From assembly GCA_964573695.1 (NCBI GenBank), contig CAZNKB010000006.1:8879-72878 (forward strand): DNA of 64,000 nt, read 5' to 3'. Made by a program: the position numbers and the translations under genes. This document shows positions 10,190-50,711 of this stretch, piece after piece. Source of the DNA: an uncultured Gammaproteobacteria bacterium. GTDB lineage: Bacteria; Patescibacteriota; Microgenomatia; UBA10105; UBA927. The stretch's first letter is position 1, and every line of letters begins with the position of its first letter. The notes beneath the pieces are model-generated. The model had not been told where the DNA came from, searched no databases, and was given only the letters and a program-made list of their open reading frames with translations.

Positions 10190-11545
10190 TCAAGTATATC
10201 GTATTACAGCGCGTGTGCTTAGGGAAATGGCGGGAGAAAATATGATATCCTCGTACCCTTTGGCGACCTTGCCGTACGATCGGGAAGAGCGAAGATTGGT
10301 CGCCATGGCCGCGAGTTTGGTTTTACGGCCGTTTATAAGCACGTCGTGGGTCATATCGATAATGGACTGCGGATACAGATCAAACGTGATGTCGCTGGTT
10401 TTGAGTCCTGCGTCGTTTAGTTGCCGTACGAAATCCTCGCTGTGAAACATCTCTGCCAGAGGGCGCGATATGATAAACGGTTTTTTGTAGGAGAACACGA
10501 GAGAGAGTACTCCTGATGCCGTCATATAGTGGCGGTAAGGAAATACAACCAAATCAGCTGCCGAAAAATACGTCGCGATATCTTTTTGGGGCACGTATCC
10601 GGTAAGTGTGATGTGATTGCTGGTGCGGACAACTTGGCGCACGTCGCGGAAGAAATTCTGGTAATAATGTCGGTTTGCAAGCGTCGGGCTTTCGCCGCCG
10701 GCGATAATGATGTGTACTTTTTTACCAAGCATTTTTTGGACACGGGCAAATGTCCGCGCAAAGATATCAGCGCCCTTGAACCAATTGATGTACCCGAAAA
10801 ACATGATGACGTGGTCACGCGCAGGGATACCGAGTTTTTTGCGGGCGAGTTTCGTGTCTATCGGCTTTAGGTTGGTGTCTACGCCATGCGGCACCGAAAC
10901 CGCATTTACCCAGGGAGCGAGGCTTTCCAGCTTTTCTTTAAGCGATGCCTCCAGTACGATGACCCGTGTTGAAACAAATGCCAGAATTCGGTAAAAAGTG
11001 TGGAATAGCAAATTGTAGATGTTCCCGATAAACTGGTCTTTGGGGCCACTTCCAAGACCTACGTGACCCTTAAGTTTCATGACATCGTCAACCACGTGAT
11101 GAAGGGTCACAAACGTCCGGTACTTGAGCATCCTTAGGAGTCCCAAAAACACGAGCCCGAGAGACGAAACGAATGGGTTGCCGTACATGGCAAAATCATA
11201 CTGTGCGAGCAGTGAGGTAGTGAGCGGGAACAGACGGATAGTTCGATAGATATCGAGCCACATGTCCGCTTTGCCGTGTCTGTAACATCGTATGACCAGA
11301 ACATGGTCTTCTGTATAAGCCTCCGGTTGTGAGTCGATATCGCAAAGTACGATGACACGGCGATCAAGATTTTTGAGCACGTTTTTGGTGTATGAGGCGA
11401 CCCCTGTTTTGCCGGTCGAATACGTTTCTCCCCGTTTCGGGTAGGGAGAAACCACGACAAGCGTATCGGGGTTGTTGTACCGTTTTATGGTCGTATTTGA
11501 TATGGTAGGCATACGATTCATACCAGGTAGTGAAATTTCGACCAT
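10190..11545 (-). CDS. GT4 family (group 1) glycosyltransferase
   Basis: 451 aa. C-terminal GT-B motifs HIIIAGGESP ... TGYVPQKDIATYFSAADLVVFPY. First gene of the minus-strand GT operon. Confidence 0.75.
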   Translation of the reverse strand: MVEISLPGMNRMPTISNTTIKRYNNPDTLVVVSPYPKRGETYSTGKTGVASYTKNVLKNLDRRVIVLCDIDSQPEAYTEDHVLVIRCYRHGKADMWLDIYRTIRLFPLTTSLLAQYDFAMYGNPFVSSLGLVFLGLLRMLKYRTFVTLHHVVDDVMKLKGHVGLGSGPKDQFIGNIYNLLFHTFYRILAFVSTRVIVLEASLKEKLESLAPWVNAVSVPHGVDTNLKPIDTKLARKKLGIPARDHVIMFFGYINWFKGADIFARTFARVQKMLGKKVHIIIAGGESPTLANRHYYQNFFRDVRQVVRTSNHITLTGYVPQKDIATYFSAADLVVFPYRHYMTASGVLSLVFSYKKPFIISRPLAEMFHSEDFVRQLNDAGLKTSDITFDLYPQSIIDMTHDVLINGRKTKLAAMATNLRSSRSYGKVAKGYEDIIFSPAISLSTRAVIRYT

Positions 11546-11912: not shown

Positions 11913-13121
11913 TTATGGCTTGCAGGTGAATGAGGCTTCCTCAAAGTTCAACTGCTCCAGCAAATAAGCGTCATCGGCAAAGACCGAAACGGCGCCATTG
12001 GCGGCGGTCCACACATCAAACCATCCCGGGCCTCCGGGGTGGGTCAGGTGGTGAAAACCATTGCCTTTGCTGTTGAAGACCCATGCTCCGCCGTCCCAAT
12101 CAGGCTCAGTCCAGAACGAAGGTTCATCACCTCCGAGAATGGCTGTAGCCATGACGGTGCTGGTGGGGCAAGTGGCATCGAGTTCGGGCTGAACCCAGAG
12201 ACCGCGGAGGTTCAGGTTTTTGCCCGGCACGGTGCCATAGCGGGGGTCCTGGCGGAACCCGTAGTTGAATTCGCGCGCCATGAGCGTGACGGCATCGTGA
12301 ACCCATTGTTGGTCTGCGCTGGTGTAGGTTTCCAACTGTCGAATCGTCGCGCCGTACACCCACATGCCCTTATGCGGACCATAGTTCACCGAGACCTTGC
12401 CGTTGGCTTGGGTCACCGTGTACTCGAAGTTATCGAGGAACGGCTGGTAGTACAGACCGATACCAACAGCCTGCACGACCCATTCGCCGCACCCTTCCCA
12501 GGGTACTGCCAAACCATTCTTCAACGGCTTGACGCCGTCATCGGACCAGCCATGGGCGGCGGTCAGTTGGGCGTTGGTGAGGCACGCGGTGGTTGTCGTA
12601 TAGTTCAGGTCCACATTCTGCGCTTCCGCGGGCGCTTCGGTGAAGCTTGCGGGTGCGGGCAGAACTTTGCCGGTACACGGGATGACAACCGGACCAACCT
12701 GAACGTAGGGCGCGCCGCTGGCACAAGACGACACAACCGTGTTGTAGACCGTCTGCTCATCAGAAGGCGCTACCACGGTGGCAGTCGGGTTGCCGAACAA
12801 CAAATACGCCGTAGGCGTGCTGGTCGGAAGTGCGGGCAACGTGGCGGTTGACGTGAACGTCGGGATGCCGGTTTCCGCCGCGTAGGTCGCCGCGATATTC
12901 GTCTGCACGATTTGACCGCTGGCAAGGGTATTGGTCGGTCCAGGACCCTGCGTCGCCGTGCCGTTGACGTTAACATACGCCTGCGTCAATGCGGACTTCA
13001 TCGTCGCGGTGGCGTACGAGTCGTCAATGACTTCCTGAGGAGTCGTCCCCAGGCAAGCCAGTGTGACCGCCAAAATCATGAAGGCGGCTGCAATGATGTT
13101 GAACGTGCGATTTTTGAACAT
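11913..13121 (-). CDS. secreted hypothetical protein (signal peptide)
   Basis: 402 aa. N-terminal MFKNRTFNIIAAAFMILAVTLACLG signal. Thr-rich segments. Confidence 0.55.
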   Translation of the reverse strand: MFKNRTFNIIAAAFMILAVTLACLGTTPQEVIDDSYATATMKSALTQAYVNVNGTATQGPGPTNTLASGQIVQTNIAATYAAETGIPTFTSTATLPALPTSTPTAYLLFGNPTATVVAPSDEQTVYNTVVSSCASGAPYVQVGPVVIPCTGKVLPAPASFTEAPAEAQNVDLNYTTTTACLTNAQLTAAHGWSDDGVKPLKNGLAVPWEGCGEWVVQAVGIGLYYQPFLDNFEYTVTQANGKVSVNYGPHKGMWVYGATIRQLETYTSADQQWVHDAVTLMAREFNYGFRQDPRYGTVPGKNLNLRGLWVQPELDATCPTSTVMATAILGGDEPSFWTEPDWDGGAWVFNSKGNGFHHLTHPGGPGWFDVWTAANGAVSVFADDAYLLEQLNFEEASFTCKP

Positions 13122-13356
13122 GGCTAAGTTTTCTCCTTTTAGCCTCCGAGTAGTTATTAGCTCTCGGACAAGTTGAGATTGGATATCACAGAAAGCGAAA
13201 AGGTTTTTGAGTCCCTAATTACCTCCTGAGTGAATTTTTCCGAGTACCCGAAAGTACTCGAAGAAAAAATATGAACCGGCTACCGCCATAAAAGCAATGA
13301 CAAGCAGTAACCAGATGGTTCCGAGCGTTTTGCGCAACCTCTTCATACCTTACTCG

Positions 13357-14271
13357 CTATTCCCGGCACGTGGTCGTGATGAGATCCAGATAGACGTTGG
13401 TGCCGTTGACGATGACTTCGAAGTGACCGCCAGTGACGTCCATCTCCACCAGTTGGAGCGAGGTTCCTGCTGGAACCGTTCCCAGCTGGGTGTTGGTCGC
13501 ATCAAAGTACGGGACATCTGCGTCGCCATCGTGCATAACGAACCAGGTGTACCAGTTGCCGTCGCGTGTATAGCCCTCTGAGCATTGCCCATGGCTGTAG
13601 TCGTTGAGCGCGATGTAGACTCTGGCCGTGCTGGTGACGTAGGTCACGCCGTCGTAAGTGACATGACTCTGATCAACGTAGGTTACGTCAGTGCCGTTTT
13701 CGACCCACATGACAGGTTGATAGGTCTCCGTCAGAAGCAGTGTCCCCATGCCATTAGCATTGACCAACTTGTAGTCTTTGCCGGCTTTGGGAGCCAGTGC
13801 CGCTGTGTGGGTTTTGTTCCAGACGCCGATTTCCAGCCGCGGGTCATAGTCGCCAATCAACTGATCGCAGGCAACTTTCACGCCGCCGATGTACATGGAT
13901 TCGGGGCGATAGCCGACAACGAGTGACTGGCACAGGTCGTGGGCTTTCAACTCCGCCATGATTACGGCGTTAGGAATCATGCGCACGTCGCCAAGGGACA
14001 AATTCGGCGGGTCGCAGGTTATTGAGTCCGCGTTGCTTGACGCCGACGCCACGGTGATTTCGTACTTGCCGAAGTCCGGGGCATCCGTCGATTCGCCGTA
14101 GTCGCAGACGATTTGCTGGGTCGTCTTGGTCGGTTCAGGCGTGGCAGTCTGGGTCGGTGCTTCGGTTGCCATCGTTTCCACGGGTTGCGCAGGCGCAATC
14201 GGTGTAACGTTTCGGCACGCGAGCAAGAGCGCAATCGCAAGCATCAGGCCTGCAAATTTGTTCTGCTTCAT
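13357..14271 (-). CDS. putative lipoprotein with a Thr/Pro-rich linker
   Basis: 304 aa. Signal MKQNKFAGLMLAIALLLAC (lipobox-like LLAC), then PAQPVETMATEAPTQTATPEPTKTTQQ. Confidence 0.55.
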   Translation of the reverse strand: MKQNKFAGLMLAIALLLACRNVTPIAPAQPVETMATEAPTQTATPEPTKTTQQIVCDYGESTDAPDFGKYEITVASASSNADSITCDPPNLSLGDVRMIPNAVIMAELKAHDLCQSLVVGYRPESMYIGGVKVACDQLIGDYDPRLEIGVWNKTHTAALAPKAGKDYKLVNANGMGTLLLTETYQPVMWVENGTDVTYVDQSHVTYDGVTYVTSTARVYIALNDYSHGQCSEGYTRDGNWYTWFVMHDGDADVPYFDATNTQLGTVPAGTSLQLVEMDVTGGHFEVIVNGTNVYLDLITTTCRE

Positions 14272-14291
14272 GTTTGCTCTCCGTTAAACCA

Positions 14292-15317
14292 TTACTGTTG
14301 CGGGCTCGGAAACGCGCCGCTCATATTGACGAGAACCGTTAGGTCATCATCAACAGTGAAATACGATGAGCCGTTCTCTGTCCGCAGATAGGTGCCGTGG
14401 ACGCAGTATTCCATCGGATCGTCAAAACCGTAGAAACCGACCTCGCCATCCGCGCAGACGTAATAGTTCCAGCCGGGATGCATCTCTTCGATGGAAACCC
14501 ATGCATAGCCGCCAGGAACATACCTCACATCCAGCGTGTAGGCGGTGTCATCATACAGCACGCGATACTTGTCCTTGTTGAGCGTGGTCGTCGGAATGCA
14601 CTTCTGAGTTTGATTGTTAATCAGAAGTCTTTCGCCATGCTGGCTCCAATCGCCTTCAATGAGAGACAGGTCAATGGCGCTCGGAAAGAGCCAGATATCG
14701 GCTTGCGGGATATTCACGCATTGCAGATACTGATTGCCGTTTTCCTGGTTTTCCCATGTAATGAGCGGCGCCTGCGGGAGGGGCGCGACATTCGCAGTCT
14801 GGCTTTTGACGGTGACGCTTGTGGTGCCGATGACGCTCCATGTGTCGCTCGTACAGAGTATCGAATACTCGTCTTCCACTGTCTGCGGGTAGACCGTCCA
14901 CTCGCTTCCAGCTTCCGAATATCTGCCTTCGCTGATGATTTGTTTGCAGGTCGTGCTTTCCAACTTGTCGTTTGCCTCATTGATGAGGTCCACATCCGCG
15001 GTCAGGGCGACGGGGTCGTTTTCATAGATCCACGTTCCTGCTTCGAGTCGAACATAGCCGCGCACGAACTGGTTGTTGATGTACGCCGAGAACGTATCGT
15101 TCGACGTGCATTTGAAATCGCGAACCGTAGATGCATTCACGACTTTATAGTCCGTGTTGCCGCAGTCGTTGAGAACAAACGGATCAGCGGTCATCTCGGT
15201 AGCGACAGGCGTTTCAGTAGCCTTAGGGGCTCCGCCGCCGCACGCCGCGAAAACGAACGAGCAGATAACTAACAGAACGAGCAGACCGTACTTCAACTTG
15301 CTATTTTTTGTTGCCAT
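14292..15317 (-). CDS. putative lipoprotein
   Basis: Start reassigned to the ATG at 15317 (MATKNSKLKYGLLVLLVICSFVFAACGGG), which has GGAGAAATTAATCATG SD spacing. The track ORF extends to 15479 with an unlikely N-terminus. Confidence 0.55.
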   Translation of the reverse strand: MATKNSKLKYGLLVLLVICSFVFAACGGGAPKATETPVATEMTADPFVLNDCGNTDYKVVNASTVRDFKCTSNDTFSAYINNQFVRGYVRLEAGTWIYENDPVALTADVDLINEANDKLESTTCKQIISEGRYSEAGSEWTVYPQTVEDEYSILCTSDTWSVIGTTSVTVKSQTANVAPLPQAPLITWENQENGNQYLQCVNIPQADIWLFPSAIDLSLIEGDWSQHGERLLINNQTQKCIPTTTLNKDKYRVLYDDTAYTLDVRYVPGGYAWVSIEEMHPGWNYYVCADGEVGFYGFDDPMEYCVHGTYLRTENGSSYFTVDDDLTVLVNMSGAFPSPQQ

Positions 15318-15567
15318 GATTAATTTCTCCTTGTTGACTAGGGTTGCCGTCAGCCACAAGTGTGACCGATCGGTATGACTGATTTCCCTTGCGGGACGAA
15401 CGGGGTGAACGATTGAATTCTTTGTTTGGGTTGGTTTTCCTTTCCTTAGGTTGGATTGAAATTCCGTCAGATGATACATATCGGTGTGATAATGTATGTT
15501 TCCCCACTAGACGGATAGCTTGATAGAGCTAGATGTAAGAGATCCTTACTCCTCTTGATTAAATTGT

Positions 15568-15623
15568 GTATATTCCCCAGTTATGTACAGACCTGCCGTT
15601 CTGTACATAGTGGGGGAATATAC
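15568..15623. promoter_or_regulatory. Imperfect 23 bp inverted repeat (20/23 matches) with a 10 nt spacer, upstream of the lipoprotein gene
   Basis: GTATATTCCCCAGTTATGTACAG ... CTGTACATAGTGGGGGAATATAC. Candidate operator or RNA hairpin. Confidence 0.35.
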
Positions 15624-16182
15624 TCACTCTTTTTCGTTCACTCGTTTTTCTAGTCGGAGAATCGCAACATCAGTGTTGTTGTCCGCTTTATTTCCGCTAT
15701 ATATTAAAAAAGAAATAATCATACATCTTTATCGTTTCACTCGATATAGCTTTACACCTCCGAGGTGGAGGAAGAAACTACAGCGAGTGGTAAAAAAGAG
15801 ATGATTTCTACCTCCGCCGATGAGGCAGAAGTAGTTTCCCTGTATGCCTTGTTAAAGTGCGTTTGCACCGTAATCCGCCGATGAGGCAGGTTAAAGTGCT
15901 ATGCTTCATCTTTACTCCAGACACACGCAATTGTGTGTCCTTTGTAAGGACTACGCATATTTCTGAGGTGTTATCCCCAGAAAAGAATCCCGCCCGCCTT
16001 CCTGCCGTAAGGCAAGACGGGACTCATTTCCGAGGGTAAGATTCCATATTTAATTGTTAAGATTTGTTTTCCTCAATGCACAACATACGGTTCTGCATTC
16101 AGGAAAAGGCACGAGTAAATGGTCCCGGTAAAGGGTATTTGGCTACGTGCCATGGTGAGAGAGTTGATTGCAGCGTGAGCTG

Positions 16183-16217
16183 CGAGAGAAAAGGGAGGCT
16201 GACAACTGGTGTCAGCC
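16183..16217 (-). terminator. Intrinsic terminator of the 16228-16704 gene
   Basis: Perfect 8 bp stem GGCTGACA/TGTCAGCC at 16197-16217, followed on the minus strand by UCCCUUUUCUCU, 10 nt after the stop. Confidence 0.5.
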
Positions 16218-16227
16218 TCACTATTGG

Positions 16228-16704
16228 TTACAGGTTGTTGCCTGGCGCTGGAGTAATCAGAAGACCATTCATGATGATCAGATTCCCATTACCTTTGCAG
16301 ATAACGCCAACCGTTTCAGGTTGTCCTTTTACGGCTTCCGTACCGGACACGGTGATAGCGCCAGCACTATTCCAATCGCCAAGGCATTCATAGCCTTGAG
16401 GAGCGGACCAGCTGACGAATGCGCCGTCGTATTCGATAAAGAACGAGGCGGACGATCCGTCGTAAAAGGTGGCGGTTGCTTCCTGCAGGTCGCTTGTGTT
16501 GCAAGTGAAACTCGTCACTTCTCGCTCTTCGCTCATGACCTGGTATTCGCTTGCCTGCGATTGGGAAATCGGGCAGTACCAGTCCACAGCATAGACATGC
16601 GCGAAAGTTATCGAGCCATTGGTGAGTGGACACAGCATCACGCAAATAAGGCAAAATAGCAGGACGCCGCCAAGTACGATCCAAAGCTTTTTGTTTCGTT
16701 TCAT
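16228..16704 (-). CDS. small secreted hypothetical protein
   Basis: 158 aa. Signal MKRNKKLWIVLGGVLLFCLICVMLC. Confidence 0.5.
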   Translation of the reverse strand: MKRNKKLWIVLGGVLLFCLICVMLCPLTNGSITFAHVYAVDWYCPISQSQASEYQVMSEEREVTSFTCNTSDLQEATATFYDGSSASFFIEYDGAFVSWSAPQGYECLGDWNSAGAITVSGTEAVKGQPETVGVICKGNGNLIIMNGLLITPAPGNNL

Positions 16705-16770
16705 CAGATGTTCTCCTCAAAATATGATCTGAGACCGGTACGATGTAGCTGCATCGGTCCCAGTTGATGT

Positions 16771-17883
16771 TTACGTCCCCGGCGTTAGTGACGCTGACGG
16801 CGTATTCGACGGGGTAAGCGTCGGACGCGGAGTCTTGGTAGACGTAGGTAGTGCCGTCGGCGTTTGGGTCGGCGCGATTTTGTGGGTCGCGTCAAATGAA
16901 TCAAACGGCAACGCGTCGCCCAAGATGTCATCCCCGAACCAGTAGTACTCCACGCTAAGCCAGCCTCCCGAAAATTCGTCCATGCGGCTAAGCATGTATT
17001 TGAGTAGCCGGGCGTTTTCCTTGTTCGTGCCTTCGCGCGGCTTGCCGTCTTGGATGAAATAAACATTCTGCATTTCTGCATCTACTTCATCGCACGTCGC
17101 GGTGTATTCTTTCCACAGAACGACGACGGTTTTGACCACATCGCCCTCGCAAGTAAACGAACGGATTGCACCGCCGTCAAACGTGATCTTCTCGCCGGTT
17201 TTTAACTCTTCGAAGGAGCGTGCGGGAAAATGGATGCCTGCAGGAACTTCGACGTTGTGGTCATGGTCAATGGTCACCTCAATGACTTCGCTTGCCGCAG
17301 TCCCTTCGCCTCCGAATCCCTGTCGGCTGAAGATTATCGTATAACCGTTGGGCATGATGCTCTTAAGTTCGTCCTCGTTGGTATCGAGAACATACATGAG
17401 CTCATGCACAGAATCCGAGATGTTCACGTCAACCGTGCTGTTGTAGGTGTAGGCAATGTATGTGCAACCTGGCGCCAGCGTGTAAGACAAGTATGTCTCG
17501 CCGAACCAGAACGTAAATTTCCCGTTGCACTTTGCAATCAGGAACACGTTGTAGCCCTCGGTGAACTTGGTCGTATTCTTCGCGTCATGGTCGTTTTCAT
17601 CGAACCAGCGTCCGAGAAACTCTACCGGTCCGCCGTCAAATATTTCCGCGTTAATCGTGCGAAGCATCAACAAACCCGGATCGGGAATGGGGCTCGCAGT
17701 GACGGTTATAGTGGCGGTGGGCGGTTCGGTTGCTGTATTTGTGGCGCTGGGTTCCGATGTGTTCGTACCGGTTGGAAATGCGGTCGCAGTTGCGGTCGGC
17801 GCATTTGTCAGCGTTTGGCATGCAAGCATTGTAATGAGCAATGCCGCAATGAATGCCGGAAAGCGATAGGCCTTCGTTTTCAT
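16771..17883 (-). CDS. putative lipoprotein with Thr/Pro-rich N- and C-terminal linkers
   Basis: 370 aa. Signal ...ALLITMLAC. N-terminal TNAPTATATAFPTGTNTSEPSATNTATEPPTATITVTASPIPDP. C-terminal APTQTPTALPTSTKTPRPTLTPSNTPSASLTPGT. Confidence 0.55.
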   Translation of the reverse strand: MKTKAYRFPAFIAALLITMLACQTLTNAPTATATAFPTGTNTSEPSATNTATEPPTATITVTASPIPDPGLLMLRTINAEIFDGGPVEFLGRWFDENDHDAKNTTKFTEGYNVFLIAKCNGKFTFWFGETYLSYTLAPGCTYIAYTYNSTVDVNISDSVHELMYVLDTNEDELKSIMPNGYTIIFSRQGFGGEGTAASEVIEVTIDHDHNVEVPAGIHFPARSFEELKTGEKITFDGGAIRSFTCEGDVVKTVVVLWKEYTATCDEVDAEMQNVYFIQDGKPREGTNKENARLLKYMLSRMDEFSGGWLSVEYYWFGDDILGDALPFDSFDATHKIAPTQTPTALPTSTKTPRPTLTPSNTPSASLTPGT

Positions 17884-18575: not shown

Positions 18576-18610
18576 ACAAAAAACCGGCTATCTCTGCCGG
18601 TTATTTTACT
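18576..18610. terminator. Bidirectional intrinsic terminator
   Basis: CCGGC-TATCTCT-GCCGG hairpin at 18584-18600, flanked by AAAAAA on the 5' side and TTATTTTACT on the 3' side. On the minus strand it reads as a hairpin plus UUUUUUGUG, 70 nt after the stop of 18679-19347. Confidence 0.55.
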
Positions 18611-18678: not shown

Positions 18679-19347
18679 TTAGGGTTTAATTGCTCCTTTC
18701 GCGAGAATCCCAAACCCAATGACAGCCAAAGCTAAAAATGGAAGCATATATGCGTAATCTTCGAATCCCGCAACAGGAAGGGTGGTTACACCCATAACTT
18801 TTGTCTGCACGCACATGCTGGCCGTATCCTGGTCGGATTGCCCGCCAGGGCCGGTGGCAGTTACCGTGTTGACGATGTCGCATGTGAGATCATTTTTGAA
18901 TGCAGAGGCGTCTTTGATTTTGACTAATACCCGATTATGGACGGTCGCTCCGGCTTTAAGATCCGAGATTTCGTACGTCAGTTTGTTTGCGTCAGCTTCG
19001 TATCTGCCAGGACCTGAGACAAACGTCACATACTCCGGAAACACATCGATTACCGTAACCGTGGCAAAGTTCACGTTGCTCGTGTTGGTCACCGCTATGT
19101 CGTATTCGACCTCGCTATTCACGGAATACGCGGCATCTGAACTCGTGATGTTTTCAACGAACGTATATGCGTTTTGGGCTTGTCTCACTTTTTTGTTGAC
19201 GACAATTCTGTTTGGGGGACACTCTACGGTATTGCCGTATTGGTTTGTACACGTCGGTGTTTCGTTGTAGTCGGCAAGTACGGTTGGTGTAACCGCAAAC
19301 AATGCGGTTGCCGTTAAGAACAAAGAAATAGCTTTGATTGATTTCAT
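18679..19347 (-). CDS. Cell-surface protein with a DUF11-like repeat domain and a C-terminal sortase sorting signal (LPVAG + TM + basic tail)
   Basis: 222 aa. N-terminal signal MKSIKAISLFLTATALFAV. C-terminal ...TLPVAGFEDYAYMLPFLALAVIGFGILAKGAIKP. Confidence 0.65.
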   Translation of the reverse strand: MKSIKAISLFLTATALFAVTPTVLADYNETPTCTNQYGNTVECPPNRIVVNKKVRQAQNAYTFVENITSSDAAYSVNSEVEYDIAVTNTSNVNFATVTVIDVFPEYVTFVSGPGRYEADANKLTYEISDLKAGATVHNRVLVKIKDASAFKNDLTCDIVNTVTATGPGGQSDQDTASMCVQTKVMGVTTLPVAGFEDYAYMLPFLALAVIGFGILAKGAIKP

Positions 19348-19426
19348 ACTATATAGTTTGCTCTAGTAATTTGAGCGTTTGTGGAGTATATCACACTTAT
19401 ACACCAGAGTCAAGTGTTATAGGCTA

Positions 19427-20305
19427 TTAAATTTTTTGATCCTGGCTTTCTATGAGATCTGCGAATATAAGCAAACGCTGTGTCGTGCTTCCGGGAGGCC
19501 AGCAGGTTTGTAAAATGAGCCTACGAGCACCCCCTTGGGGCGCCAGGTAGGCGACAGCCGTGGGGTCGACGATCTGCTTACCGGTTATTTTGTAGGTGTA
19601 GCTCGCTCCCTTGTAAAACAAAACAACCATGTCGTTCTCTTCCAGATTTTTGAGGAGGTAAAATACGGCATTTAGATCACCCACGAACCAATCGTAATTG
19701 GTGGAGTGGGAAAAGAGGAATACGGTGCCGTCCTCGTTTGGGAAGTAGGAGAGCGAAGAGTGAGCTATACCCTTTTGGAGCGCTGCCAAGTACTCTCCCG
19801 GTTTGGTCGGATTGACAGCCGGAATTACCGCTGCATTGACCCCGATTTTCGGGATAACGAGCGAAAACTCTTTGTTTACCGGATCAATTGAGGCTCCGTC
19901 GGGGGTTTTAAGCGGGTCAAAAACCGCTGGAACTGCCTGTTGAGATGAGGCGACATCTGAAGCATGTTGAGCCTGTTTTGTGCCTGTCAGTCGGGATAGC
20001 TGTGTATTAGCCTCTGCAATGCCAGCTATAACATCGGCTTTGAATCCCGGCCAGGCGTGCTGAGCCTGAATAAGGGCATATTTCGTTTCGAGTCGTATGC
20101 GGGGTGTCAGAGGCCCTGTGAGTCCTCCAAGTGCCAGTGCTATAAGTCCCAATCCCACCAAATGTAGCCCCGATGATTTGTTGCGGTTATGTGAGATTGT
20201 AGATTGGTGTTTTCGTTCGCGTAGGACCGTAAGCGACGAAAGATCGCCGAGAGCGATTTGAGGCTGACTTTGGGTCCATTCAAAGATAATTCCGGTGGGT
20301 TTCAT
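19427..20305 (-). CDS. sortase (transpeptidase) family protein
   Basis: 292 aa. N-terminal TM anchor. Motifs: His in LFSHSTNYDW, catalytic Cys in RLILQTCWPPGS (TLxTC-like), downstream Arg in QRLLIFA. Immediately upstream of the LPVAG substrate gene. Confidence 0.7.
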   Translation of the reverse strand: MKPTGIIFEWTQSQPQIALGDLSSLTVLRERKHQSTISHNRNKSSGLHLVGLGLIALALGGLTGPLTPRIRLETKYALIQAQHAWPGFKADVIAGIAEANTQLSRLTGTKQAQHASDVASSQQAVPAVFDPLKTPDGASIDPVNKEFSLVIPKIGVNAAVIPAVNPTKPGEYLAALQKGIAHSSLSYFPNEDGTVFLFSHSTNYDWFVGDLNAVFYLLKNLEENDMVVLFYKGASYTYKITGKQIVDPTAVAYLAPQGGARRLILQTCWPPGSTTQRLLIFADLIESQDQKI

Positions 20306-20396: not shown

Positions 20397-20792
20397 CTAT
20401 ATTTCTATGGGAGCGACGTATTTACCCGCGCGGTAATATCGTCCGTCAGGGCCCTGGGAGTATATACGTCGGTTGCGCGCGATAACTCTAAGTTCCAAAA
20501 TATCGGTGCGCTTCGAAGGAGATCCAAATACTGCAGTCTTGATTCTCCGTTGTCTGCCTGATAATTCCACGACAGTACGCCAGGTGTATGTGCCATGTTG
20601 TTTGGCATCTCTGGCTCCTCTCATACCGTCCCGTAGGCAGGTAAATGACCGGCAATGCCACGCTTTCTCGTCTTCGTATGGTGACACAGGAAGAAGACGA
20701 AGTCCGTCGTCAGTGAGTATTTGGGGAACTAATTCCGTGTGGCACTCGAGTCGTATCGGGCAGCCCTGGCATATGGCGTACTCTTGTTTCAT
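20397..20792 (-). CDS. small Cys-rich hypothetical protein (CxxC-x5-C ... C-x5-C)
   Basis: 131 aa. AICQGCPIRLECH...WHCRSFTCLRDG. Possible metal-binding protein. Overlaps the GNAT gene by 4 nt. Confidence 0.4.
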   Translation of the reverse strand: MKQEYAICQGCPIRLECHTELVPQILTDDGLRLLPVSPYEDEKAWHCRSFTCLRDGMRGARDAKQHGTYTWRTVVELSGRQRRIKTAVFGSPSKRTDILELRVIARNRRIYSQGPDGRYYRAGKYVAPIEI

Positions 20793-21304
20793 ACCAGCTT
20801 CTTTTCAAATTTCAGGAGGCGGGTGTCATTGATTGTCACGTAGTCCGTGAGGGAAAATCCTGCCCCGGTAAATAATTTGATGCTTTTTTCATTGTCCGGT
20901 TTTATAAGCGCCCGCACCGAATGAAGTTGTGCGATATTTTTGGCATAGATAAGGATGTCAGATATTGCCTGTGTCCCGATACCTCGGCTTTGGTACTGCT
21001 TGTCTCCTATGACGATGCCGATTTCTCCCGTCGTTGTGGGGAGTTGATCTTGCCGAAGGCTTACAAACCCGACAGTTTTGTTGTCCGATACGATGTCGAA
21101 GTAATGGCGCAAAGGATCCGTCGTAGCGTTTGTCACCCAACGGTATACTTCTTCAGGATGTTCGGGCAGCACGCCACACATCCATTGTCGTATCTGTGGA
21201 TCCGTGATCCACCGCAGCCAATTGGCTCGTGTTTCTTTGGTCTGTTGGGTCGGCTTTAGGTGGACGTATGCGTGCGTTTCGCGCACTTCCTGTGTTGCAG
21301 TCAT
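20789..21304 (-). CDS. GNAT family N-acetyltransferase
   Basis: 171 aa. Acetyl-CoA motif GIVIGDKQYQSRGIGTQAISDIL (Q/R-x-x-G-x-G/A). Confidence 0.7.
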   Translation of the reverse strand: MTATQEVRETHAYVHLKPTQQTKETRANWLRWITDPQIRQWMCGVLPEHPEEVYRWVTNATTDPLRHYFDIVSDNKTVGFVSLRQDQLPTTTGEIGIVIGDKQYQSRGIGTQAISDILIYAKNIAQLHSVRALIKPDNEKSIKLFTGAGFSLTDYVTINDTRLLKFEKKLV

Positions 21305-21674: not shown

Positions 21675-24600
21675 TTACACGGCTTTCTTTTTGGCAAACG
21701 ACACTTGAAGTTTGTCCCCCGCAACGTCAATGCGATTTGCTTTCCACGATGGGTTGATCTTGCCGTTTAAGTGCGTGAGTACCAGATCATTGAAATGATC
21801 GAGGCTTTCATGAATTGATTTTTGCCATGGTCTGGCAAGGAGCGGCAAATGGAGGCTCAATGTGTCTTTCTTAACTATGAGGCCATGTGTGGGGTCGGTA
21901 ATGAGTGTCCCCGCAAACTGCGCTTCGCCGACGATTGTTTTGGCCTTCATGTCGGTAAGTTTTACCGTGTTGCCTTCGATTGTAATTTTTCCTCCGGTGA
22001 TCCGGGCCCCCGGTAGTTCGACCGAGGATCGGACGTAATCCATAAGTTCACCGGTGGTAAGTTGTACTGCTGCTTGGGTTTCGCGTGCCTTGTTCAATAC
22101 GTATGTAATACGATCTTCGACTCCTTCAGGGAGGCGCTCGGGAGCGCGAGGTGTCTCCGTTTGTATCGCGGGTGGTTCTGTCGGCTGTGCGTTTGTTACG
22201 TCGGGAGATGCGATGCTTGAGGCGACAGTTTCTGTCGGTGTTTCCGCTTCAGTTGGTTTTTCCGGTTGGTCGCCTGCTAATGTTTCGAGATGTTCGCGGG
22301 GCGATTCGGGTGCGTTCGGGACTGCGGCAACTACCTCTTGCGCTGCGGTTTTTGCAAAGCTCTCAATGTCCGGTGTGGCTGCCATATTGGCGCTGAGGTT
22401 GGTCATATCCGTTATGGTAATCGCACCGTCTTTGAGTTCGTAGGTGAGTCCGAGCGTATCCATGGTGCGTCCAAAATACGCATCAAATCGTGCGGGGTTG
22501 GAAGATTTGAGCGTCGGGTACATGTTGGCATACATATTGTTGATATGGGCCTCCATAGTTTCTTTGGTGAATTGTTCGTTGGCTTTTTTGGCCATGTCTT
22601 CCCAATGCATGTCTTTGTATACTTCGTTGTTTGCAAGCGGCACCGAGGGCTCTGCAAGTCCGAGTTGTTGGAGTTGCATATAAACGGTTTCCTTTGGATC
22701 CATGGTTGCCGCTAACGAAGGGAGAGAAACCGCGACATCCGGAGTTTTTCTGGCGTCCGTTAACATCCAGGCGACCTCCCGTTCTTCCATGAGTGGGGAA
22801 TTGGGGTTATATCCGCCGATAGCAGCTAAAGAACCAGACCGTACAGCAGTGTTTCCCTGAAATGCAGCGGGTACGCTTTGCGTTTCTCCGTGACGGACGA
22901 GGGCATCAAAGATTTCAAACGCACGGTGATGTGCGAATAACATCGGGTAGTTGGCATACGCGTCTTTCGGAAGTTGATATATGCCGCTGACGATATCAAG
23001 AGAAGGATTGGCATCAAATGTATCGATGATGCTGGATAGATACGTGGCTTCGACCGGGTTTCCTGTGCTGTTTTCGGCAATAAGCGAAACTTCCGGCGCG
23101 TCCGGAGGGCGACTTGCGACCAGTGACAATGCGTAGTTACTCAGGTCCCGTTTTATGCGTCCGGAGGTCGGAGGTTCTGCATAGGTATTGGTGATAAATT
23201 GCACCTGCATATCCGGATGATCCGCACGGAAGCGGTCAATTTCTGCTTTGGTGTCTCCTGGTAGTGTGGAGGTGACTGATTCTGCCGGCGGGGTCACGTT
23301 GGCTTCGTAGACGACAAATGCCACGCGCTTCGGATCAAGCGCGGATCCGTCGGCATTTGTTTGTTGCGCGTATGTACTGAGCCGCTGATATATCGTATTG
23401 CCGTTTTGTACCAGGGGAATCGAAACGATTGCTCGTGTGTCAGGCGAGAGGACCGGATTATCTTGAGCTTTGAGCGCTTCAAGTGTTTGTTGTTCTTCCG
23501 GTGTGAGGAGCGAAAGGTACCAATCAATTTCTTCCCGTTCATTGAGTTTTGCTTGCGGATTTTCGGTGAGCCTTGGTGACATACGGTTTGCCCGTGCTTC
23601 ACGGTTTAAGAATGTTTCTTCATAGCCAAACGGACTGATCATGGTTTCACCCGGGATCATCTGACCCATGAGCCCCTCTATGGGAGCGGCTTCGAGGACC
23701 TCTCTATACGGCAAGAAAATCGGTATCCATGGAAGTTCTCGCGCCGCTGCTCCCGGAGTGACAACCGTTTCTACATGGTACGGAATTTCCAGAGGGGCGG
23801 ATGCGAAAATTTTACCCGGCTCATCACTCTTGAATACCTCCGTAAGGGTAAACTGATGTATGGCATCGGTTTTTACCTCAGTTATGGGTGTGGGCACTAT
23901 CGGAGTCCCGACAAATGGCGACTCAGGGCTTTCGGGTAATCCAAGTTTTTCCATGAGAGGAGCTAATTCTGCCTGACTGGGTAAATCGGCATCCCGTCCG
24001 AAATAGCTCATCCGAAGGAGAAGGGCGTCGATTTTGTCCTGATCGGAGCCTTTTTCCAGGAGGTGTAACGCGTCCATAGGACTCTGGCCCGAAGCGACGA
24101 TGTCTTGATAATGTTTGATCGCCAGATCATTCATTTCTGAAAAGCGATGTACGGCTTCCGGACTAAACAGCTCCTTCGGCACATTGATATGCGCATCATT
24201 AGCGATATGGGCGATATCAAATTCTTTGACCGGCGTATCCCCGAATGTGGCATCGCGGAGGCGGGCAACGTGGTCATAGGGGTTGCTTCCGTTATCGCCG
24301 AAACTTACGTTCTGCGGGATTCCGTCGGCCGTATGCGGTACGTAATGCTGTTCATACAGACGGAAAAGATTCTTGATACCATTGGCACTCGCTACCCGAT
24401 GTTCACCACTGGATTTGTCGAGGAAATAATCCCAAAGTCCACCTTCCTGCAGATCACTACCTTTGATGTCGATCATGTCACCTGCATTAGCACTTTCCGG
24501 TGTGCCGGAAACAAATACACTTGTTGCAGGGAACGATTCGATCTTTGCAGGAATGATTTCCTGAGATTTCCACTCAAATCCATTGGCTTTTAGATCTGCC

Positions 24601-27600
24601 GTCAGCTTCGCAAGCTCGGCCGGTGTGCCTTGTAGTTCTCCTGTTTGGGTAAAATCAACGGTACTTACGATTTGCTTATCTGCGTTGAGTATTTGCCAGT
24701 GATGACTACTGTCAAGATATTTGAGTGTATAATCTTCCGGCAATTTCGCGGTAAGTGGCTCTCCGCCTGGTGTTGTCAGGTGGGGAATGGTGACAACGTC
24801 ATGTATGCTGGAGACTGCCTCTCCGGCTTTGTGGGGTTCAGTTATCGATAATCCGGCTTTTACCAGCGCATCTTTGAATTGCTGTTCGGATAAATGCGTT
24901 CCGAGTACCACGTCTTCCTGTCCTTTAAGATTCTCGATAAGGCTGATATCCAATTTTGCGTCATAGAAAACTTTGCCGTTTTCGGTATATGGATTGACAA
25001 TCATTTCTTTGGGTAATTGATATACGTTATGCCCAATGGAAATGATGTGTTCGCCGGTCGGAGGAGATAGTTCGACATGCGACGAACCTGTAGCGTTTGC
25101 TGCGTCAGAAAGTTCGGCTGCCCCCCGGGTAACCGTATCGCTCGTCCCTATATGTGCAAGTCCCTGGAATGCGGCTCCTACCGCGGCTCCGACGACTCCT
25201 GCTTTGACGCCGTATTTGACGGCTTCGATCTTCGCTTCGGATTTGAATTCTTCGAGTATGGCGTCGAGTCCGAGCGCCTTCTCGTCGCCGCTTAGGTTTT
25301 TGGAAGCGAATGGCCACCGGCGCCTCATGATTTCTGCTTCCGGTGCATACGAAGAAACGAGGTTGAGCGTCAATTTCAGCGGATCGTCGAGGGCGTCAAG
25401 CGATTGGGCTCCTTGCCGTAGTACCTGCGTTTGGGTGACCGTTAGTTTTTCCATGAATTCCGCAAATGTATTGCCGCCAAGCACAAGGTCGGCCTGTTCG
25501 GTATGTCCGGCCAGATATGATTCGATATCAGCAAGTGCTTTGTTGGCGGTAAGATCGAGCGCGCTTCGCTCGCTTTCAATGGATTCGCGGTTTGTGTACT
25601 GTATCAAACCGATTCTTTTGGGTCCTGTTTCGCTGACTGCCTTGCGTGCGTGAAGATCGGCAATGGTAGCAAATGACGCCCGTAGTTCATCGTCGGACAG
25701 GTTTGCTTTGAGAGTATCGCCTTCGTAAAGGGAAGATTGCAGTGTCGCGATCATTTCGTCTGCCCTGCGTTGCTTGACTGCAAATTTTTCAAACCAGTTC
25801 CTGCGTTTCTGGGTTTCGGTAAACTGAGCGCCGCTTTCGCGTTCCCGTAGGTGTGTCATGTAATCTTTCTGCAATTGTCCGTATTCACGCCAGCCGGCGA
25901 ACAATCCTCCTGCAAGCGCTCCTCCCGTGAGACTTCCCAGCGGCCCTGTGATAGAGGCGACTGCTTTAAATGGCGCGGTCTTGAGGAAGTTGACTGCCGA
26001 GAGCGCGATTGCAACTCCCGAGCCGATTGTCGCTTCGTTAAAGACCATAGGAACTAAGACATGCTGCTTATTGAGCCAGTCGGCGATTTCCCGGATCTGT
26101 CCGACGCCTTTTTCCACCGCAGTCGGCTCCAAGCTGGTAACTTCTCCCATGGCGCCCAGTCCTAGTCGTATTTGCATGGAGTTTATCGCTTCATCGATAT
26201 TTGCGAGTCCTCCCTCATGGCTCATTTTGGTGCGTAGCGTTTCTGCTACCTCATACAGACTCGAACTATATAATTCTGCCTCAGCAAAAATATCCGGGCG
26301 TGTATTGTTTAGCGTCGCTTTGAAGAATTCTTTTGTTCGGGCATCAAATTCTGCTTTGTCCGCTATTTCGCCACTGGCGTATTGTTTGAGTAAGCTTTGT
26401 ATCCCTTCTACCAACGGTTTGTGTTCTTCGCGTGCAGGGTCGAGAATCTCGAGTTTTTCTCCCAGTTGCTTACGGACGAACTGATCCGCCTGGTCAAAAT
26501 CTCCTCCGAAGCGTGCGCGAACCGCTTTGGCTTCGCGCTCAAATGTCTCGAGACCTTTGATTTCTCCCGTAAGTCTCATGGTTCCGATTTCTTCCAGAGC
26601 GATATTTTGGATTGTGGTGCGCATGCCAACCTTATCTTTGAACCAGTCAACTGCCTTGGTCCCTATTCGGAGTATGAAATTGGAATCTGCCAATTTCGCA
26701 TTGTATTTGTCCGTGGCTCTTCGTTCGGCTAATCTGATCGCGTCTTCCGCAAAGGGTGTTTCTGCTGCCTTGAGCATGTCGATGTAGTATTGGCGGGCTT
26801 TTTCATGGAAATAAATGCCGCCGATGCTTTGCTTCCATGTAGTGACCGCGAAATTTTCTATGTTCGCTACCGCGTCTTTGGTTTTTTCCCAGAGATTGCG
26901 TGTCGCCTGGGTCCGCTCCGCGGATTGCGGATGCGTAAGCTTCTGCATACTACGGTCGGCCAAATCCAGCGCCCGGGTTTCATAGGCTTTGAGCCCCACA
27001 ATGGTAATGACATTGGGGTCTTCGGTCAGGGTTTCCAATATCTCGCGGGCGCCTTTGGCGGGAGTGGGTTCCTGCTGCACTGCCTCCGGCGTTGGAGCCT
27101 CCGGAGCATGTTGCTCTGGAGTCGCGGGAGCGGGAGTTTCGGGAGACAGGGCGGGTGATTCTGTCGGTTTGTCTTGACTTGTCGGGGTTTCCCCAGAGGC
27201 TGCCGGTTCCTGTGGTATTTGAGCCGGTGTTTCCTGTTTGATAGCCGGTGCGGCGGGAGCTTGCGGCTCCAGCGTGAGCATATCTTTCGTGATCATGTGA
27301 GTGGCGTTTTGTTCGTCTGACCATTGCAATCCCGAAATTTTATCCCAGGGTACTTCATCAAAGGCATTGAGATTTGTGAGCGGTTTATCGACGAGCTTGC
27401 CTTCCTCTCCTTTTTTGCGGCTGAGTTCTTTGACGAGAGGAACGATGCTTCCCACTCCGTCGTTGGAGCGTTTCTCTGCCGGTAATATGGTGATATAGGA
27501 AATATCCTTGCCTCCGATAAGCTGCGGCTGTGAAAGATAGATCGGCGTTTCTCCTACGATAATCGATTGCTGTTTGCCGATTTCAGGATTGTTTTGTGGT

Positions 27601-27617
27601 GGGATTGGTTCTGTCAT
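21675..27617 (-). CDS. giant hypothetical protein (1980 aa) with a low-complexity Pro/Glu/Ala/Thr segment and internal glycine-zipper hydrophobic helices
   Basis: Single uninterrupted ORF. Residues ~100-190 are PAAPAIKQETPAQIPQEPAASGETPTSQDKPTESPALSPETPAPATPEQHAPEAPTPEAV. Mid-protein hydrophobic segments VAIALSAVNFLKTAPFKAVASITGPLGSLTGGALAGGLFAGW and VKYGVKAGVVGAAVGAAFQGLAHIG. No enzymatic motif recognised. Confidence 0.6.
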   Translation of the reverse strand: MTEPIPPQNNPEIGKQQSIIVGETPIYLSQPQLIGGKDISYITILPAEKRSNDGVGSIVPLVKELSRKKGEEGKLVDKPLTNLNAFDEVPWDKISGLQWSDEQNATHMITKDMLTLEPQAPAAPAIKQETPAQIPQEPAASGETPTSQDKPTESPALSPETPAPATPEQHAPEAPTPEAVQQEPTPAKGAREILETLTEDPNVITIVGLKAYETRALDLADRSMQKLTHPQSAERTQATRNLWEKTKDAVANIENFAVTTWKQSIGGIYFHEKARQYYIDMLKAAETPFAEDAIRLAERRATDKYNAKLADSNFILRIGTKAVDWFKDKVGMRTTIQNIALEEIGTMRLTGEIKGLETFEREAKAVRARFGGDFDQADQFVRKQLGEKLEILDPAREEHKPLVEGIQSLLKQYASGEIADKAEFDARTKEFFKATLNNTRPDIFAEAELYSSSLYEVAETLRTKMSHEGGLANIDEAINSMQIRLGLGAMGEVTSLEPTAVEKGVGQIREIADWLNKQHVLVPMVFNEATIGSGVAIALSAVNFLKTAPFKAVASITGPLGSLTGGALAGGLFAGWREYGQLQKDYMTHLRERESGAQFTETQKRRNWFEKFAVKQRRADEMIATLQSSLYEGDTLKANLSDDELRASFATIADLHARKAVSETGPKRIGLIQYTNRESIESERSALDLTANKALADIESYLAGHTEQADLVLGGNTFAEFMEKLTVTQTQVLRQGAQSLDALDDPLKLTLNLVSSYAPEAEIMRRRWPFASKNLSGDEKALGLDAILEEFKSEAKIEAVKYGVKAGVVGAAVGAAFQGLAHIGTSDTVTRGAAELSDAANATGSSHVELSPPTGEHIISIGHNVYQLPKEMIVNPYTENGKVFYDAKLDISLIENLKGQEDVVLGTHLSEQQFKDALVKAGLSITEPHKAGEAVSSIHDVVTIPHLTTPGGEPLTAKLPEDYTLKYLDSSHHWQILNADKQIVSTVDFTQTGELQGTPAELAKLTADLKANGFEWKSQEIIPAKIESFPATSVFVSGTPESANAGDMIDIKGSDLQEGGLWDYFLDKSSGEHRVASANGIKNLFRLYEQHYVPHTADGIPQNVSFGDNGSNPYDHVARLRDATFGDTPVKEFDIAHIANDAHINVPKELFSPEAVHRFSEMNDLAIKHYQDIVASGQSPMDALHLLEKGSDQDKIDALLLRMSYFGRDADLPSQAELAPLMEKLGLPESPESPFVGTPIVPTPITEVKTDAIHQFTLTEVFKSDEPGKIFASAPLEIPYHVETVVTPGAAARELPWIPIFLPYREVLEAAPIEGLMGQMIPGETMISPFGYEETFLNREARANRMSPRLTENPQAKLNEREEIDWYLSLLTPEEQQTLEALKAQDNPVLSPDTRAIVSIPLVQNGNTIYQRLSTYAQQTNADGSALDPKRVAFVVYEANVTPPAESVTSTLPGDTKAEIDRFRADHPDMQVQFITNTYAEPPTSGRIKRDLSNYALSLVASRPPDAPEVSLIAENSTGNPVEATYLSSIIDTFDANPSLDIVSGIYQLPKDAYANYPMLFAHHRAFEIFDALVRHGETQSVPAAFQGNTAVRSGSLAAIGGYNPNSPLMEEREVAWMLTDARKTPDVAVSLPSLAATMDPKETVYMQLQQLGLAEPSVPLANNEVYKDMHWEDMAKKANEQFTKETMEAHINNMYANMYPTLKSSNPARFDAYFGRTMDTLGLTYELKDGAITITDMTNLSANMAATPDIESFAKTAAQEVVAAVPNAPESPREHLETLAGDQPEKPTEAETPTETVASSIASPDVTNAQPTEPPAIQTETPRAPERLPEGVEDRITYVLNKARETQAAVQLTTGELMDYVRSSVELPGARITGGKITIEGNTVKLTDMKAKTIVGEAQFAGTLITDPTHGLIVKKDTLSLHLPLLARPWQKSIHESLDHFNDLVLTHLNGKINPSWKANRIDVAGDKLQVSFAKKKAV

Positions 27618-31703: not shown

Positions 31704-32333
31704 ATGCAACCTACTATAATCGGATTACTCGGTAAACCGTTGGCGGGGAAAGACACTGTTGCCCGTGCACTTGCAGACTCGCTTCCGAATCTCGCTACAA
31801 TTTCCATGGGAGAGGTAGTGCGGGAGGTGAAAGCAGTGGGACCTGCTCACCGTTTTTGGAATGAATTACATGATTCTATAGGTATAGCCGATGCTGGCGG
31901 TATCGCTCCGGACGGACCTATTTTCGAATGTCTGACCAAGCTTATCACCGAGCAGTTTGACAAGGGCGCGGAAACAGTTGTTTGGGTTGCCGGCCCGAGA
32001 AGTGAGCAGCAGCTAGACTGGTTGGATTCGTGGACAAAAGATTGCGGATATCAAGAACAATTCGTGTATATCGATGTCCCGGATGAAATGGTGTATGAGC
32101 GGGTTAGTGAGCGCGCTGCACACATGAGAGAAGATGACAAGGTGGTTCCCTATAGACTTGCCGAGTTTGAACGGATTACCAAGCCAGTTATAGATCGGCT
32201 TCGGGAGCAGGGGAGAATCCGCGAGATAAGTGGCTTGGGTGGGAGAGAAGCCGTGGGTTCGCGTGCTGTGGAGATATTTATGCCCGTACAAAAAGAACAC
32301 GAGCCTACATTACCCACGATGGCGCGACGATAA
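31704..32333 (+). CDS. adenylate kinase-like nucleoside monophosphate kinase (divergent, P-loop)
   Basis: 209 aa. Walker A GKPLAGKDT. NMP-binding-like ISMGEVVREV. Ends in LPTMARR. Paralog of 33699-34343. Confidence 0.55.
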   Translation: MQPTIIGLLGKPLAGKDTVARALADSLPNLATISMGEVVREVKAVGPAHRFWNELHDSIGIADAGGIAPDGPIFECLTKLITEQFDKGAETVVWVAGPRSEQQLDWLDSWTKDCGYQEQFVYIDVPDEMVYERVSERAAHMREDDKVVPYRLAEFERITKPVIDRLREQGRIREISGLGGREAVGSRAVEIFMPVQKEHEPTLPTMARR

Positions 32334-35021: not shown

Positions 35022-35083
35022 GATACCTCTGTGTAAATACTTTTTTCAAGATATTTTTTTTGAATTCCATATCTGATATACTC

Positions 35084-43610: not shown

Positions 43611-43641
43611 AGTATACAGCACATTATGATAGAATGCCATT

Positions 43642-48948: not shown

Positions 48949-49013
48949 CGTAATATATCGTACATCCAAATACCACACAGACCGTTACAATAAGATTTCT
49001 CTATTATATTACT

Positions 49014-49247: not shown

Positions 49248-49294
49248 TTTGTCTTTCAGGTGACTTCTTTTTCCGTTTGACATACACTGGTTGT

Positions 49295-50660: not shown

Positions 50661-50711
50661 TTAAGGTAAGCGCATTCATCAGTATCCAAATCTACATGGT
50701 ATGATGAATAT

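Follow-up and report, generated by a model that had tools for sequence, protein, structure and literature searches.

Sortases of the housekeeping kind (classes A and E) act on many dispersed substrates, and we know of no experimental work on which proteins Candidate Phyla Radiation bacteria (CPR, Patescibacteria) fix to their walls. According to Méheust et al. 2019, over half of CPR genomes encode members of one sortase family, which is near-ubiquitous in Microgenomates and for which no substrate is named (PMC6744442); further CPR papers merely record the presence of a sortase (one of them is PMC7143001), and our searches brought up none that connects sortases of the CPR with DUF11 proteins or with LPxAG. 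Here we analyse a gene pair, coding for a sortase and for a DUF11 (CLIPPER) surface protein with the C-terminal signal LPVAG, in a 64-kb stretch of contig CAZNKB010000006.1 (assembly GCA_964573695.1, positions 8,879 to 72,878; hereafter the window, with positions counted from its first letter). The two genes make up a cell-surface module that is conserved among Gottesmanbacteria, Woesebacteria and related Microgenomates, and we think it likely that the enzyme is a single-substrate sortase that cuts LPVAG between Ala and Gly and links an isopeptide-stabilised immunoglobulin (Ig)-like protein to peptidoglycan.

Several described systems resemble this pair in part. Class E sortases of Actinobacteria, such as SrtE of Thermobifida fusca (PDB 9iok), share with the window enzyme the N-terminal anchor, the His-Cys-Arg triad and a signal with one changed position. 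Class E reads LAxTG (Ala for Pro at position 2), whereas the motif here is LPxAG (Ala for Thr at position 4), and class E serves many dispersed substrates, while a single neighbour is indicated for the window enzyme. TIGR03784, the class GN (‘marine’) sortase of Proteobacteria with an adjacent dedicated target, follows the same logic of one sortase, one adjacent target and a lineage-specific signal variant; its lineage (Proteobacteria rather than CPR), target fold and signal differ. In class C systems (SpaA, RrgB, BcpA) the sortase gene likewise stands next to one that codes for an isopeptide-type Ig-like protein, and the likeness extends to the top fold matches and to the family TIGR04226. 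Unlike these, the window pair has no conserved pilin-motif lysine, its substrate is a single-domain protein, and its sortase lacks a C-terminal anchor.

On the substrate side, the closest relatives are the CLIPPER stalks of fibrillar adhesins. The family PF01345 was renamed CLIPPER and described as a CnaA-like Ig fold with an Asp-catalysed Lys-Asn isopeptide bond and a crystal structure, 9IFR (PMC12617251). The window protein has the same fold and keeps the positions of the Lys/Asp/Asn triad; described CLIPPER domains usually stand in tandem in long adhesins, whereas here one domain makes up nearly the whole mature protein, and the family is unusually conserved (60-87% identity across species). 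The sortase-motif patterns used in the same isopeptide survey (LPxT[GAND], LAxTG and similar) omit LPxAG (PMC12617251), so this CLIPPER substrate family would not have been counted as sortase-anchored. Ala for Thr at position 4 has been met before in Staphylococcus aureus, where LPxAG marks two minority substrates of the general LPxTG enzyme SrtA (PMC3436756); here, by contrast, Ala is all but fixed family-wide.

The interval flagged in a first-pass annotation of the window, 18679-20305, corresponds to exactly two open reading frames (ORFs), both on the minus strand. The sortase gene lies upstream (19427-20305; 292 aa; ORF with a match to Pfam PF04203), the substrate gene downstream (18679-19347; 222 aa; ORF with a match to PF01345), and the intergenic spacer measures 79 bp. 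Every close homolog, of the sortase as of the substrate, belongs to Patescibacteria, and those that bear a name are Gottesmanbacteria or Woesebacteria. The nearest locus (L005, a metagenome-assembled genome of Candidatus Gottesmanbacteria) encodes a substrate with 87% and a sortase with 71% identity, and one entry in the protein database (P0001) is 100% identical to the window sortase.

Scanning one genome per GTDB species, we found 336 genomes with a relative of the window sortase and examined 80 loci. Sixty of these 80 carry a sortase of the Gottesmanbacteria/Woesebacteria type, and 55 of the 60 also encode a substrate homolog. Of the five substrate-less loci, four stop fewer than 360 bp past the sortase gene, so that the pair is present in 55 of the 56 that can be evaluated. 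The substrate gene is on the same strand, at most about 900 bp downstream of the sortase gene, in 48 loci, and the pair is kept while the flanking genes change (L001 versus L002). Across the species compared, the substrates are 26-87% identical to the window protein. The dedicated pairing proposed in the first-pass annotation has thus stood up to comparison, with 55 of 56 evaluable loci and the signal in one family. The apparently ‘truncated’ substrates of 108-132 aa in three loci (L044, L049 and L050) were discarded as an artefact, as the genes extend past the end of the fetched locus. Many of the GTDB representative records with the pair (L006, L008, L012, L017-L019 and others) are titled ‘uncultured Gammaproteobacteria bacterium’; wording of this kind seems to be a placeholder, or a taxonomic mislabelling, in third-party assemblies.

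The substrate ends in TTLPVAGFEDYAYMLPFLALAVIGFGILAKGAIKP, that is, TTLPVAGFED-YAYMLPFLALAVIGFGILA-KGAIKP, just as the first-pass annotation had read it (LPVAG, a hydrophobic stretch and a KGAIKP tail). LPVAG occupies residues 190-194 (18766-18780, minus strand; codons CTT CCT GTT GCG GGA) and is followed, after three residues, by a putative membrane-retention helix of about 19 residues (approximately 198-216 from the sequence, with a modelled helix at 197-219) and by the basic tail KGAIKP (residues 217-222), encoded together at 18682-18756 on the minus strand. The same tripartite layout recurs in all 139 distinct C-termini of substrate homologs on which our signal statistics are based. Pro and Gly of the motif are invariant in these 139 tails, and Leu is found in 132. 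Position 3 is Val in 120/139, otherwise Glu, Lys, Thr, Ala, Ile or Gln. At position 4, Ala occurs 138 times, Asn once and Thr never. Conservation continues into the flanks, with Thr at -1 (121/139), Phe at +1 (117/139), Glu, Asn or Asp at +2 (127/139) and Asp at +3 (129/139), and defines an extended core (A/V)TTLPVAGF(E/N/D)D. After the Gly the tails run for 22-33 residues, and 131 of the 139 have 2-5 Lys or Arg within the last ten residues. Individual loci add further variants: LPVSG (L026), LPSAG (L061), LPVNG (L057) and QPEAG (L081, Roizmanbacteria). TIGR01167, the curated model for LPXTG anchors, fails to recognise the window protein even at E up to 1, and its matches to 5 of 59 homologs are weak (best E 0.078).

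Ala could change to Thr by one transition (here GCG to ACG), yet Thr is absent across divergent species, which argues for selection and not for drift. The enzyme therefore appears to require, or strongly to prefer, Ala where canonical signals have Thr, as far as the conservation of the motif can tell, and the suggestion of the first-pass annotation that LPxAG hints at non-canonical specificity gains weight from the count of 138 Ala and no Thr in 139 tails. By analogy with other sortases, the scissile bond is presumed to be Ala193-Gly194.

Is the CLIPPER protein the only substrate? None of the other ORFs in the 64 kb has a C-terminal signal of this kind, and in the 80 loci credible signals are found only in CLIPPER homologs. 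When 1.84 billion cluster representatives were searched with a signal profile of 37 positions, 29 matches were obtained at E <= 0.001, all of which belong to one family of 210-237 aa or are its fragments, bar one repeat artefact. This last match, a 686-aa protein (P0221), was rejected as another substrate; it aligns by tandem repeats to the hydrophobic part of the profile only. Among these representatives the signal is restricted to one protein family. Taken together, the window, the loci and the profile search indirectly indicate a single substrate per genome, and a sortase dedicated to the adjacent substrate is supported.

The window enzyme is a sortase by fold and catalytic residues. Its match to PF04203 (Sortase, peptidase family C60) covers residues 149-284 and has E 4e-20 and 72.3 bits, where the cut-off is 26.6; these match boundaries define a catalytic domain encoded at 19454-19861 (minus strand). 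His200 (codon at 19706-19708), Cys268 (19502-19504) and Arg277 (19475-19477, all on the minus strand) are invariant in an alignment of 44 homologs; Trp269, beside Cys268, is invariant too. They reside in the motifs LFSH(200)STNYDWF, LILQTC(268)WPPGS, which is of the TLxTC type, and QR(277)LLIFAD, the last reading RLLxFA in the alignment. The Cys, His and Arg motifs noticed in the first-pass annotation are therefore borne out, and the catalytic residues do align, in all 44 sequences.

The AlphaFold2 (AF2) model of the sortase has an eight-stranded β-barrel fold and matches solved sortases at E ~1e-10 to 1e-11 with a root-mean-square deviation of 1.7-3 Å; the predicted local distance difference test (pLDDT) is 72-91 across most of the catalytic domain and 43 in the loop 201-210. 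At the N-terminus a basic stretch precedes the hydrophobic segment LHLVGLGLIALALGGLTGPL at approximately residues 47-66 (helix modelled at 47-60), in keeping with the N-terminal anchor seen at first pass. The predicted layout is a cytoplasmic N-terminal tail, one transmembrane anchor, a long helix (67-106) and then the catalytic barrel. Both sequence and model are without a C-terminal hydrophobic segment, and the chain ends eight residues past the last strand. By analogy with characterised sortases, transpeptidase activity on a C-terminal sorting signal is predicted for the enzyme.

The first eight residues of the sortase (20281-20305, minus strand) form a conserved cytoplasmic start, M-x-x-(S/T/Y)-G-(I/V)-I-(Y/F), in which Gly5 and Ile7 are nearly invariant. 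Levybacteria-type relatives of the sortase are without this motif. Sortases do not usually have a conserved tail on the cytoplasmic side, and this one might serve to dock a partner.

Assignment to a sortase class proved less straightforward. With the NCBIfam models the window sortase scored below the cut-off for class D (NF058671, 42.7 bits versus 140; NF033746, 41.7 versus 165), class C (NF033745, 40 versus 160), class E (NF033747, 32.7 versus 160) and class GN (TIGR03784, 27.6 versus 158). The class F model NF033748 left it unmatched and matched 2 of the 44 homologs (E 3e-04), and there was no class-specific NCBIfam match to class A or B. Even the generic model TIGR01076 gave 39.2 against a cut-off of 39.35, and solved class A chains align to the C-terminal half only, with 20-30 bits. 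The other 43 family members match the class models weakly as well: their best E is 3.1e-15, compared with 4.9e-11 for the 42.7 bits of the window protein, and for the class C model over all 44 members the best E is 1.6e-13, compared with ~1e-10 for the window protein’s 40 bits. Profile comparison with solved structures ranks SrtE of T. fusca first (9iok; E 1.2e-09, 41 bits). The best fold matches of the model are to class C (4g1j at the top with E 1.9e-11, and 2xwg), with the scores of classes C, D, E and A less than a factor of ten apart, too alike for a class assignment, and we dropped fold matches for this purpose. By the scores compared here, the window sortase reaches the cut-off of no curated class.

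From its N-terminus onwards, the substrate consists of a Sec signal peptide, a small loop bracketed by cysteines (CTNQYGxxVxC), one Ig-like domain of the CLIPPER/DUF11 type, a short stalk and, finally, the sorting signal. The signal peptide is typical of Sec export, MKSIKAISLFLTATALFAVTPTVLA with predicted cleavage before Asp (…TPTVLA/DYNE). PF01345 is matched with E 3.4e-10 (40.7 bits versus a cut-off of 24.6) and TIGR01451 with 30 bits (cut-off 24), so that the DUF11-type nature of the adjacent protein, recognised in the first-pass annotation, is secured. From modelled strands and invariant columns the β-sandwich is placed at residues 48-181 (18805-19206, minus strand). The AF2 model (pLDDT 87) shows the CLIPPER fold, its best match in the PDB being 9IFR (E 9.3e-07, template-modelling score 0.75 on the target), and it also matches the major pilin SpaD (4hss, E 1.8e-04).

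A sequence search yielded 88 substrate homologs. In an alignment of 59 homologs Lys52, Asp101, Asn160, Cys33, Cys43, Cys156, Cys179, Pro191, Ala193 and Gly194 are invariant; Lys52 is the sole invariant lysine, while Lys53 and the remaining lysines vary. In a hidden Markov model alignment to 9IFR, Asp101 corresponds to the Asp of LNDTLG and Asn160 to the Asn of VVNKVTA. Judging from these conserved positions, an intramolecular isopeptide bond Lys52-Asn160 with Asp101 as catalyst is probable, and so are two disulfides, Cys33-Cys43 and Cys156-Cys179. Of the 59 family members, 32 match TIGR04226, a domain that forms Lys-to-Asn isopeptide bonds and takes its name from fimbrial proteins. The mature N-terminus of the substrate varies in length and sequence among homologs.

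We propose the following route for the substrate. The 222-aa protein would be exported via Sec and lose its signal peptide after VLA. It would then fold into one CLIPPER Ig-like domain, locked by the Lys52-Asn160 bond, with Asp101 as catalyst, and by the two disulfides, while the C-terminal hydrophobic helix and basic tail hold it in the membrane. There the neighbouring membrane-anchored sortase would read the extended signal TTLPVAGF(E/N/D)D, Cys268 would attack between Ala193 and Gly194 and form a thioester, and transfer to an amino group of a peptidoglycan precursor would leave a small, very stable Ig-like protein covalently on the wall. CPR bacteria have been found to possess near-complete peptidoglycan synthesis (PMC7143001), and the window itself offers a wall context with MreB, a PEGA protein and WecG/TagA.

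A number of points weigh against this wall-anchoring by a single-substrate enzyme. For this lineage the cleavage, the scissile bond and the acceptor are drawn by analogy from other sortases. The residue count of the catalytic Asp in 9IFR is off by one from the numbering in the paper. In seven loci the substrate gene is remote from the sortase gene (2.6-3.8 kb downstream in four, about 4.5 kb away and on the other strand in three), and one locus (L048) continues for 2.4 kb past the sortase gene without a substrate. Distant sortases of the Levybacteria type (35-40% identity) have no adjacent substrate in 19 of 20 loci. The conclusion of a single substrate draws on the window, the 80 loci and the cluster representatives and not on complete genomes, and the 37-position profile is short and includes family-specific features of the membrane helix, so that substrates with a divergent helix could fall below its threshold.

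Three other readings were weighed. A class C-like enzyme could join the Ala193 carbonyl of one CLIPPER subunit to the next, at a lysine or at its N-terminal amine, and so build a covalent pilus. The arrangement of a sortase beside an Ig-like isopeptide-type protein recalls pilus islands, class C pilus sortases (4g1j, 2xwg) head the fold matches of the sortase model, the substrate model matches the pilin SpaD (4hss), TIGR04226 is found in those 32 of 59 members, and a conserved F-D/N-P-L stretch lies upstream of the barrel where class C lids sit, in a region modelled at low confidence. We nevertheless regard such a fibre as unlikely. The lone invariant lysine, Lys52, sits in the intramolecular triad with Asn160 and Asp101, and with Lys53 and the other lysines variable there is no conserved pilin-motif lysine, which makes pilus polymerisation unlikely; the alternative acceptor, the mature N-terminus, is variable, and the substrate has a single domain. 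On the enzyme side, the class C model gives 40 bits where 160 are asked for, a C-terminal membrane anchor is missing, and classes D, E and A match the fold nearly as well as class C. In the loci we found no genes for tip or base pilins and no second sortase.

The first-pass annotation had called the pair ‘housekeeping-type’, and a general sortase, the only one of the cell, could act on many surface proteins genome-wide, with the CLIPPER protein as merely the adjacent one. The sortase gene stands within a conserved core region (M16 peptidase, NDK, Maf, PEGA, MreB), the substrates of the Levybacteria-type relatives must be encoded elsewhere, given that none adjoins the gene, and SrtA of S. aureus processes LPxTG proteins together with two LPxAG proteins (PMC3436756). 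This reading is improbable in the light of the signal searches, in which the profile retrieved one family only, no second signal-bearing ORF appeared in the 64 kb and only CLIPPER homologs had credible signals in the 80 loci; the extended conservation over 11 residues, and the fact that Thr never takes the place of Ala, speak for a close match of one enzyme to one substrate. Housekeeping sortases are known for dispersed substrates, here one substrate lies alongside in 55 of 56 loci with its signal in one family, and no curated class is reached; the label ‘housekeeping-type’ is thus unfit, and we do not retain it.

We give hardly any credence to a third reading, in which the 222-aa protein is just anchored in the membrane by its C-terminus and LPVAG and the neighbouring sortase are unrelated. 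In its favour, TIGR01167 misses the window protein and finds 5/59 homologs weakly. Pro, Ala and Gly are kept, however, exactly where sortases read, at a fixed distance before the helix and the basic tail, and, although the surroundings change, 55 of 56 evaluable loci keep the substrate near the sortase. Beyond the single-substrate sortase that we favour, it is conceivable, though doubtful, that the Microgenomates enzymes make up a sortase class of their own, which depends on Ala, not Thr, as the residue ahead of the scissile bond and reads an 11-residue signal. In that case the CLIPPER substrate would be a core envelope part of these ultra-small cells, and could serve as the wall base of a surface layer or of host attachment, or form a covalent head-to-tail fibre.

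The 79-bp spacer contains a promoter-like site (19385-19413, minus strand), TTGACT-17 nt-TATACT with a TG before the -10 element and 10/12 matches, whose promoter function is putative. A separate site of this kind suggests that the substrate may be made in excess of the sortase. Downstream, an intrinsic terminator consisting of a hairpin and a U-run (18582-18602, minus strand) ends the predicted substrate transcript. The hairpin has seven pairs, five of them G-C, with a folding free energy (dG) of -11.9 kcal/mol and a z-score of -3.2, and it is followed on the minus strand by UUUUUUGUGUUUG. The first-pass annotation had described a clean bidirectional terminator: its role at the end of the substrate gene stands, whereas the bidirectionality is nominal, as the T-run is weaker in the plus-strand reading and no supported plus-strand gene ends there. 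A scan of the window with Rfam found two tRNAs only and no match close to the sortase-substrate pair.

Around the pair, the window (G+C ~49%) contains a neighbourhood common to relatives (compare L002): an M16 peptidase (30081-31358), NDK (35012-35509), Maf (38903-39568), a PEGA protein (42306-43784), MreB (43642-44736, plus strand) and WecG/TagA (45033-45866). Directly upstream of the sortase lie genes for a Cys-rich 131-aa protein (20397-20792), a GNAT acetyltransferase (20789-21304) and a 1980-aa protein without a Pfam match (21675-27617, minus strand). A 1984-aa counterpart of the latter occupies the same position in L001 and is absent from the context of L002, and the three genes look like an insertion of ~8 kb into the ancestral neighbourhood. 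We excluded them as members of the module; they are common only to close relatives (L001) and not to L002.

Downstream of the pair, at 11913-17883 on the minus strand, a series of secreted or lipoprotein-like proteins (402, 304, 395, 158 and 370 aa) is encoded, without Pfam match or sortase signal; the protein at 16771-17883 has Thr/Pro-rich linkers. Glycosyltransferases of the GT4 family form a run at 47737-54338 (plus strand) and 10190-11545 (minus strand), with a starch-synthase-like gene at 52908-54338. The GT4 genes, the starch-synthase-like gene and WecG/TagA suggest a wall-polymer or surface-glycan locus. Two adenylate-kinase-like paralogs (31704-32333 and 33699-34343, both plus strand), about 1.4 kb apart, flank an ion-transport channel gene (32350-33174, minus strand). 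An open frame at 58302-64000 (plus strand) of at least 1899 codons, which runs past the end of the window, encodes collagen-like G-X-Y repeats and, after them, a non-repeat region rich in Thr, Ser and Gly; the G+C content of this region is 0.55-0.59. GC skew is zero or positive in 32/32 consecutive 2-kb bins regardless of gene orientation, and cumulative skew climbs steadily to 3.14, which recalls a Microgenomates genome with reported strand composition disparity (PMC7143001).

In related genomes two further sets of neighbours were observed. A conserved protein of ~210 aa adjoins the substrate gene in L002 (9558-10187), L044 (9439-10077), L049 (9536-10174) and L050 (9447-10091); its N-terminus is twin-arginine-like (SRRDxxKGAG), the L002 copy has no Pfam match, and no counterpart is found beside the window pair. 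Next to Levybacteria-type sortases (L066, 3211-4348; L073, 5455-6724; L076, 3638-4716) lie two genes in whose products we recognised, by eye, motifs like those of DsbA/MdbA (…STPSFFINGK…) and VKOR (HAFCQYCL). Enrichment of an MdbA-like oxidoreductase and of VKOR was reported by Méheust et al. 2019 (PMC6744442), and the neighbours with DsbA/MdbA-like and VKOR-like motifs fit both this enrichment in CPR and the four invariant cysteines of the CLIPPER substrates.

Overall, the pair is a lineage-specific variant of a well-understood system, and the general understanding of sortases is not overturned. Motif-based surveys with patterns such as LPxT[GAND] or LAxTG miss this family. The fixed LPxAG signal and the conserved residues after the cut would be useful for protein ligation if the specificity is orthogonal to that of LPxTG enzymes. 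For the CPR bacteria themselves, the pair is a concrete enzyme-substrate couple, and its substrate is perhaps the one protein that these cells bind covalently to the wall; its main use lies in the entry point that it offers to the CPR envelope and in a candidate orthogonal sortase.

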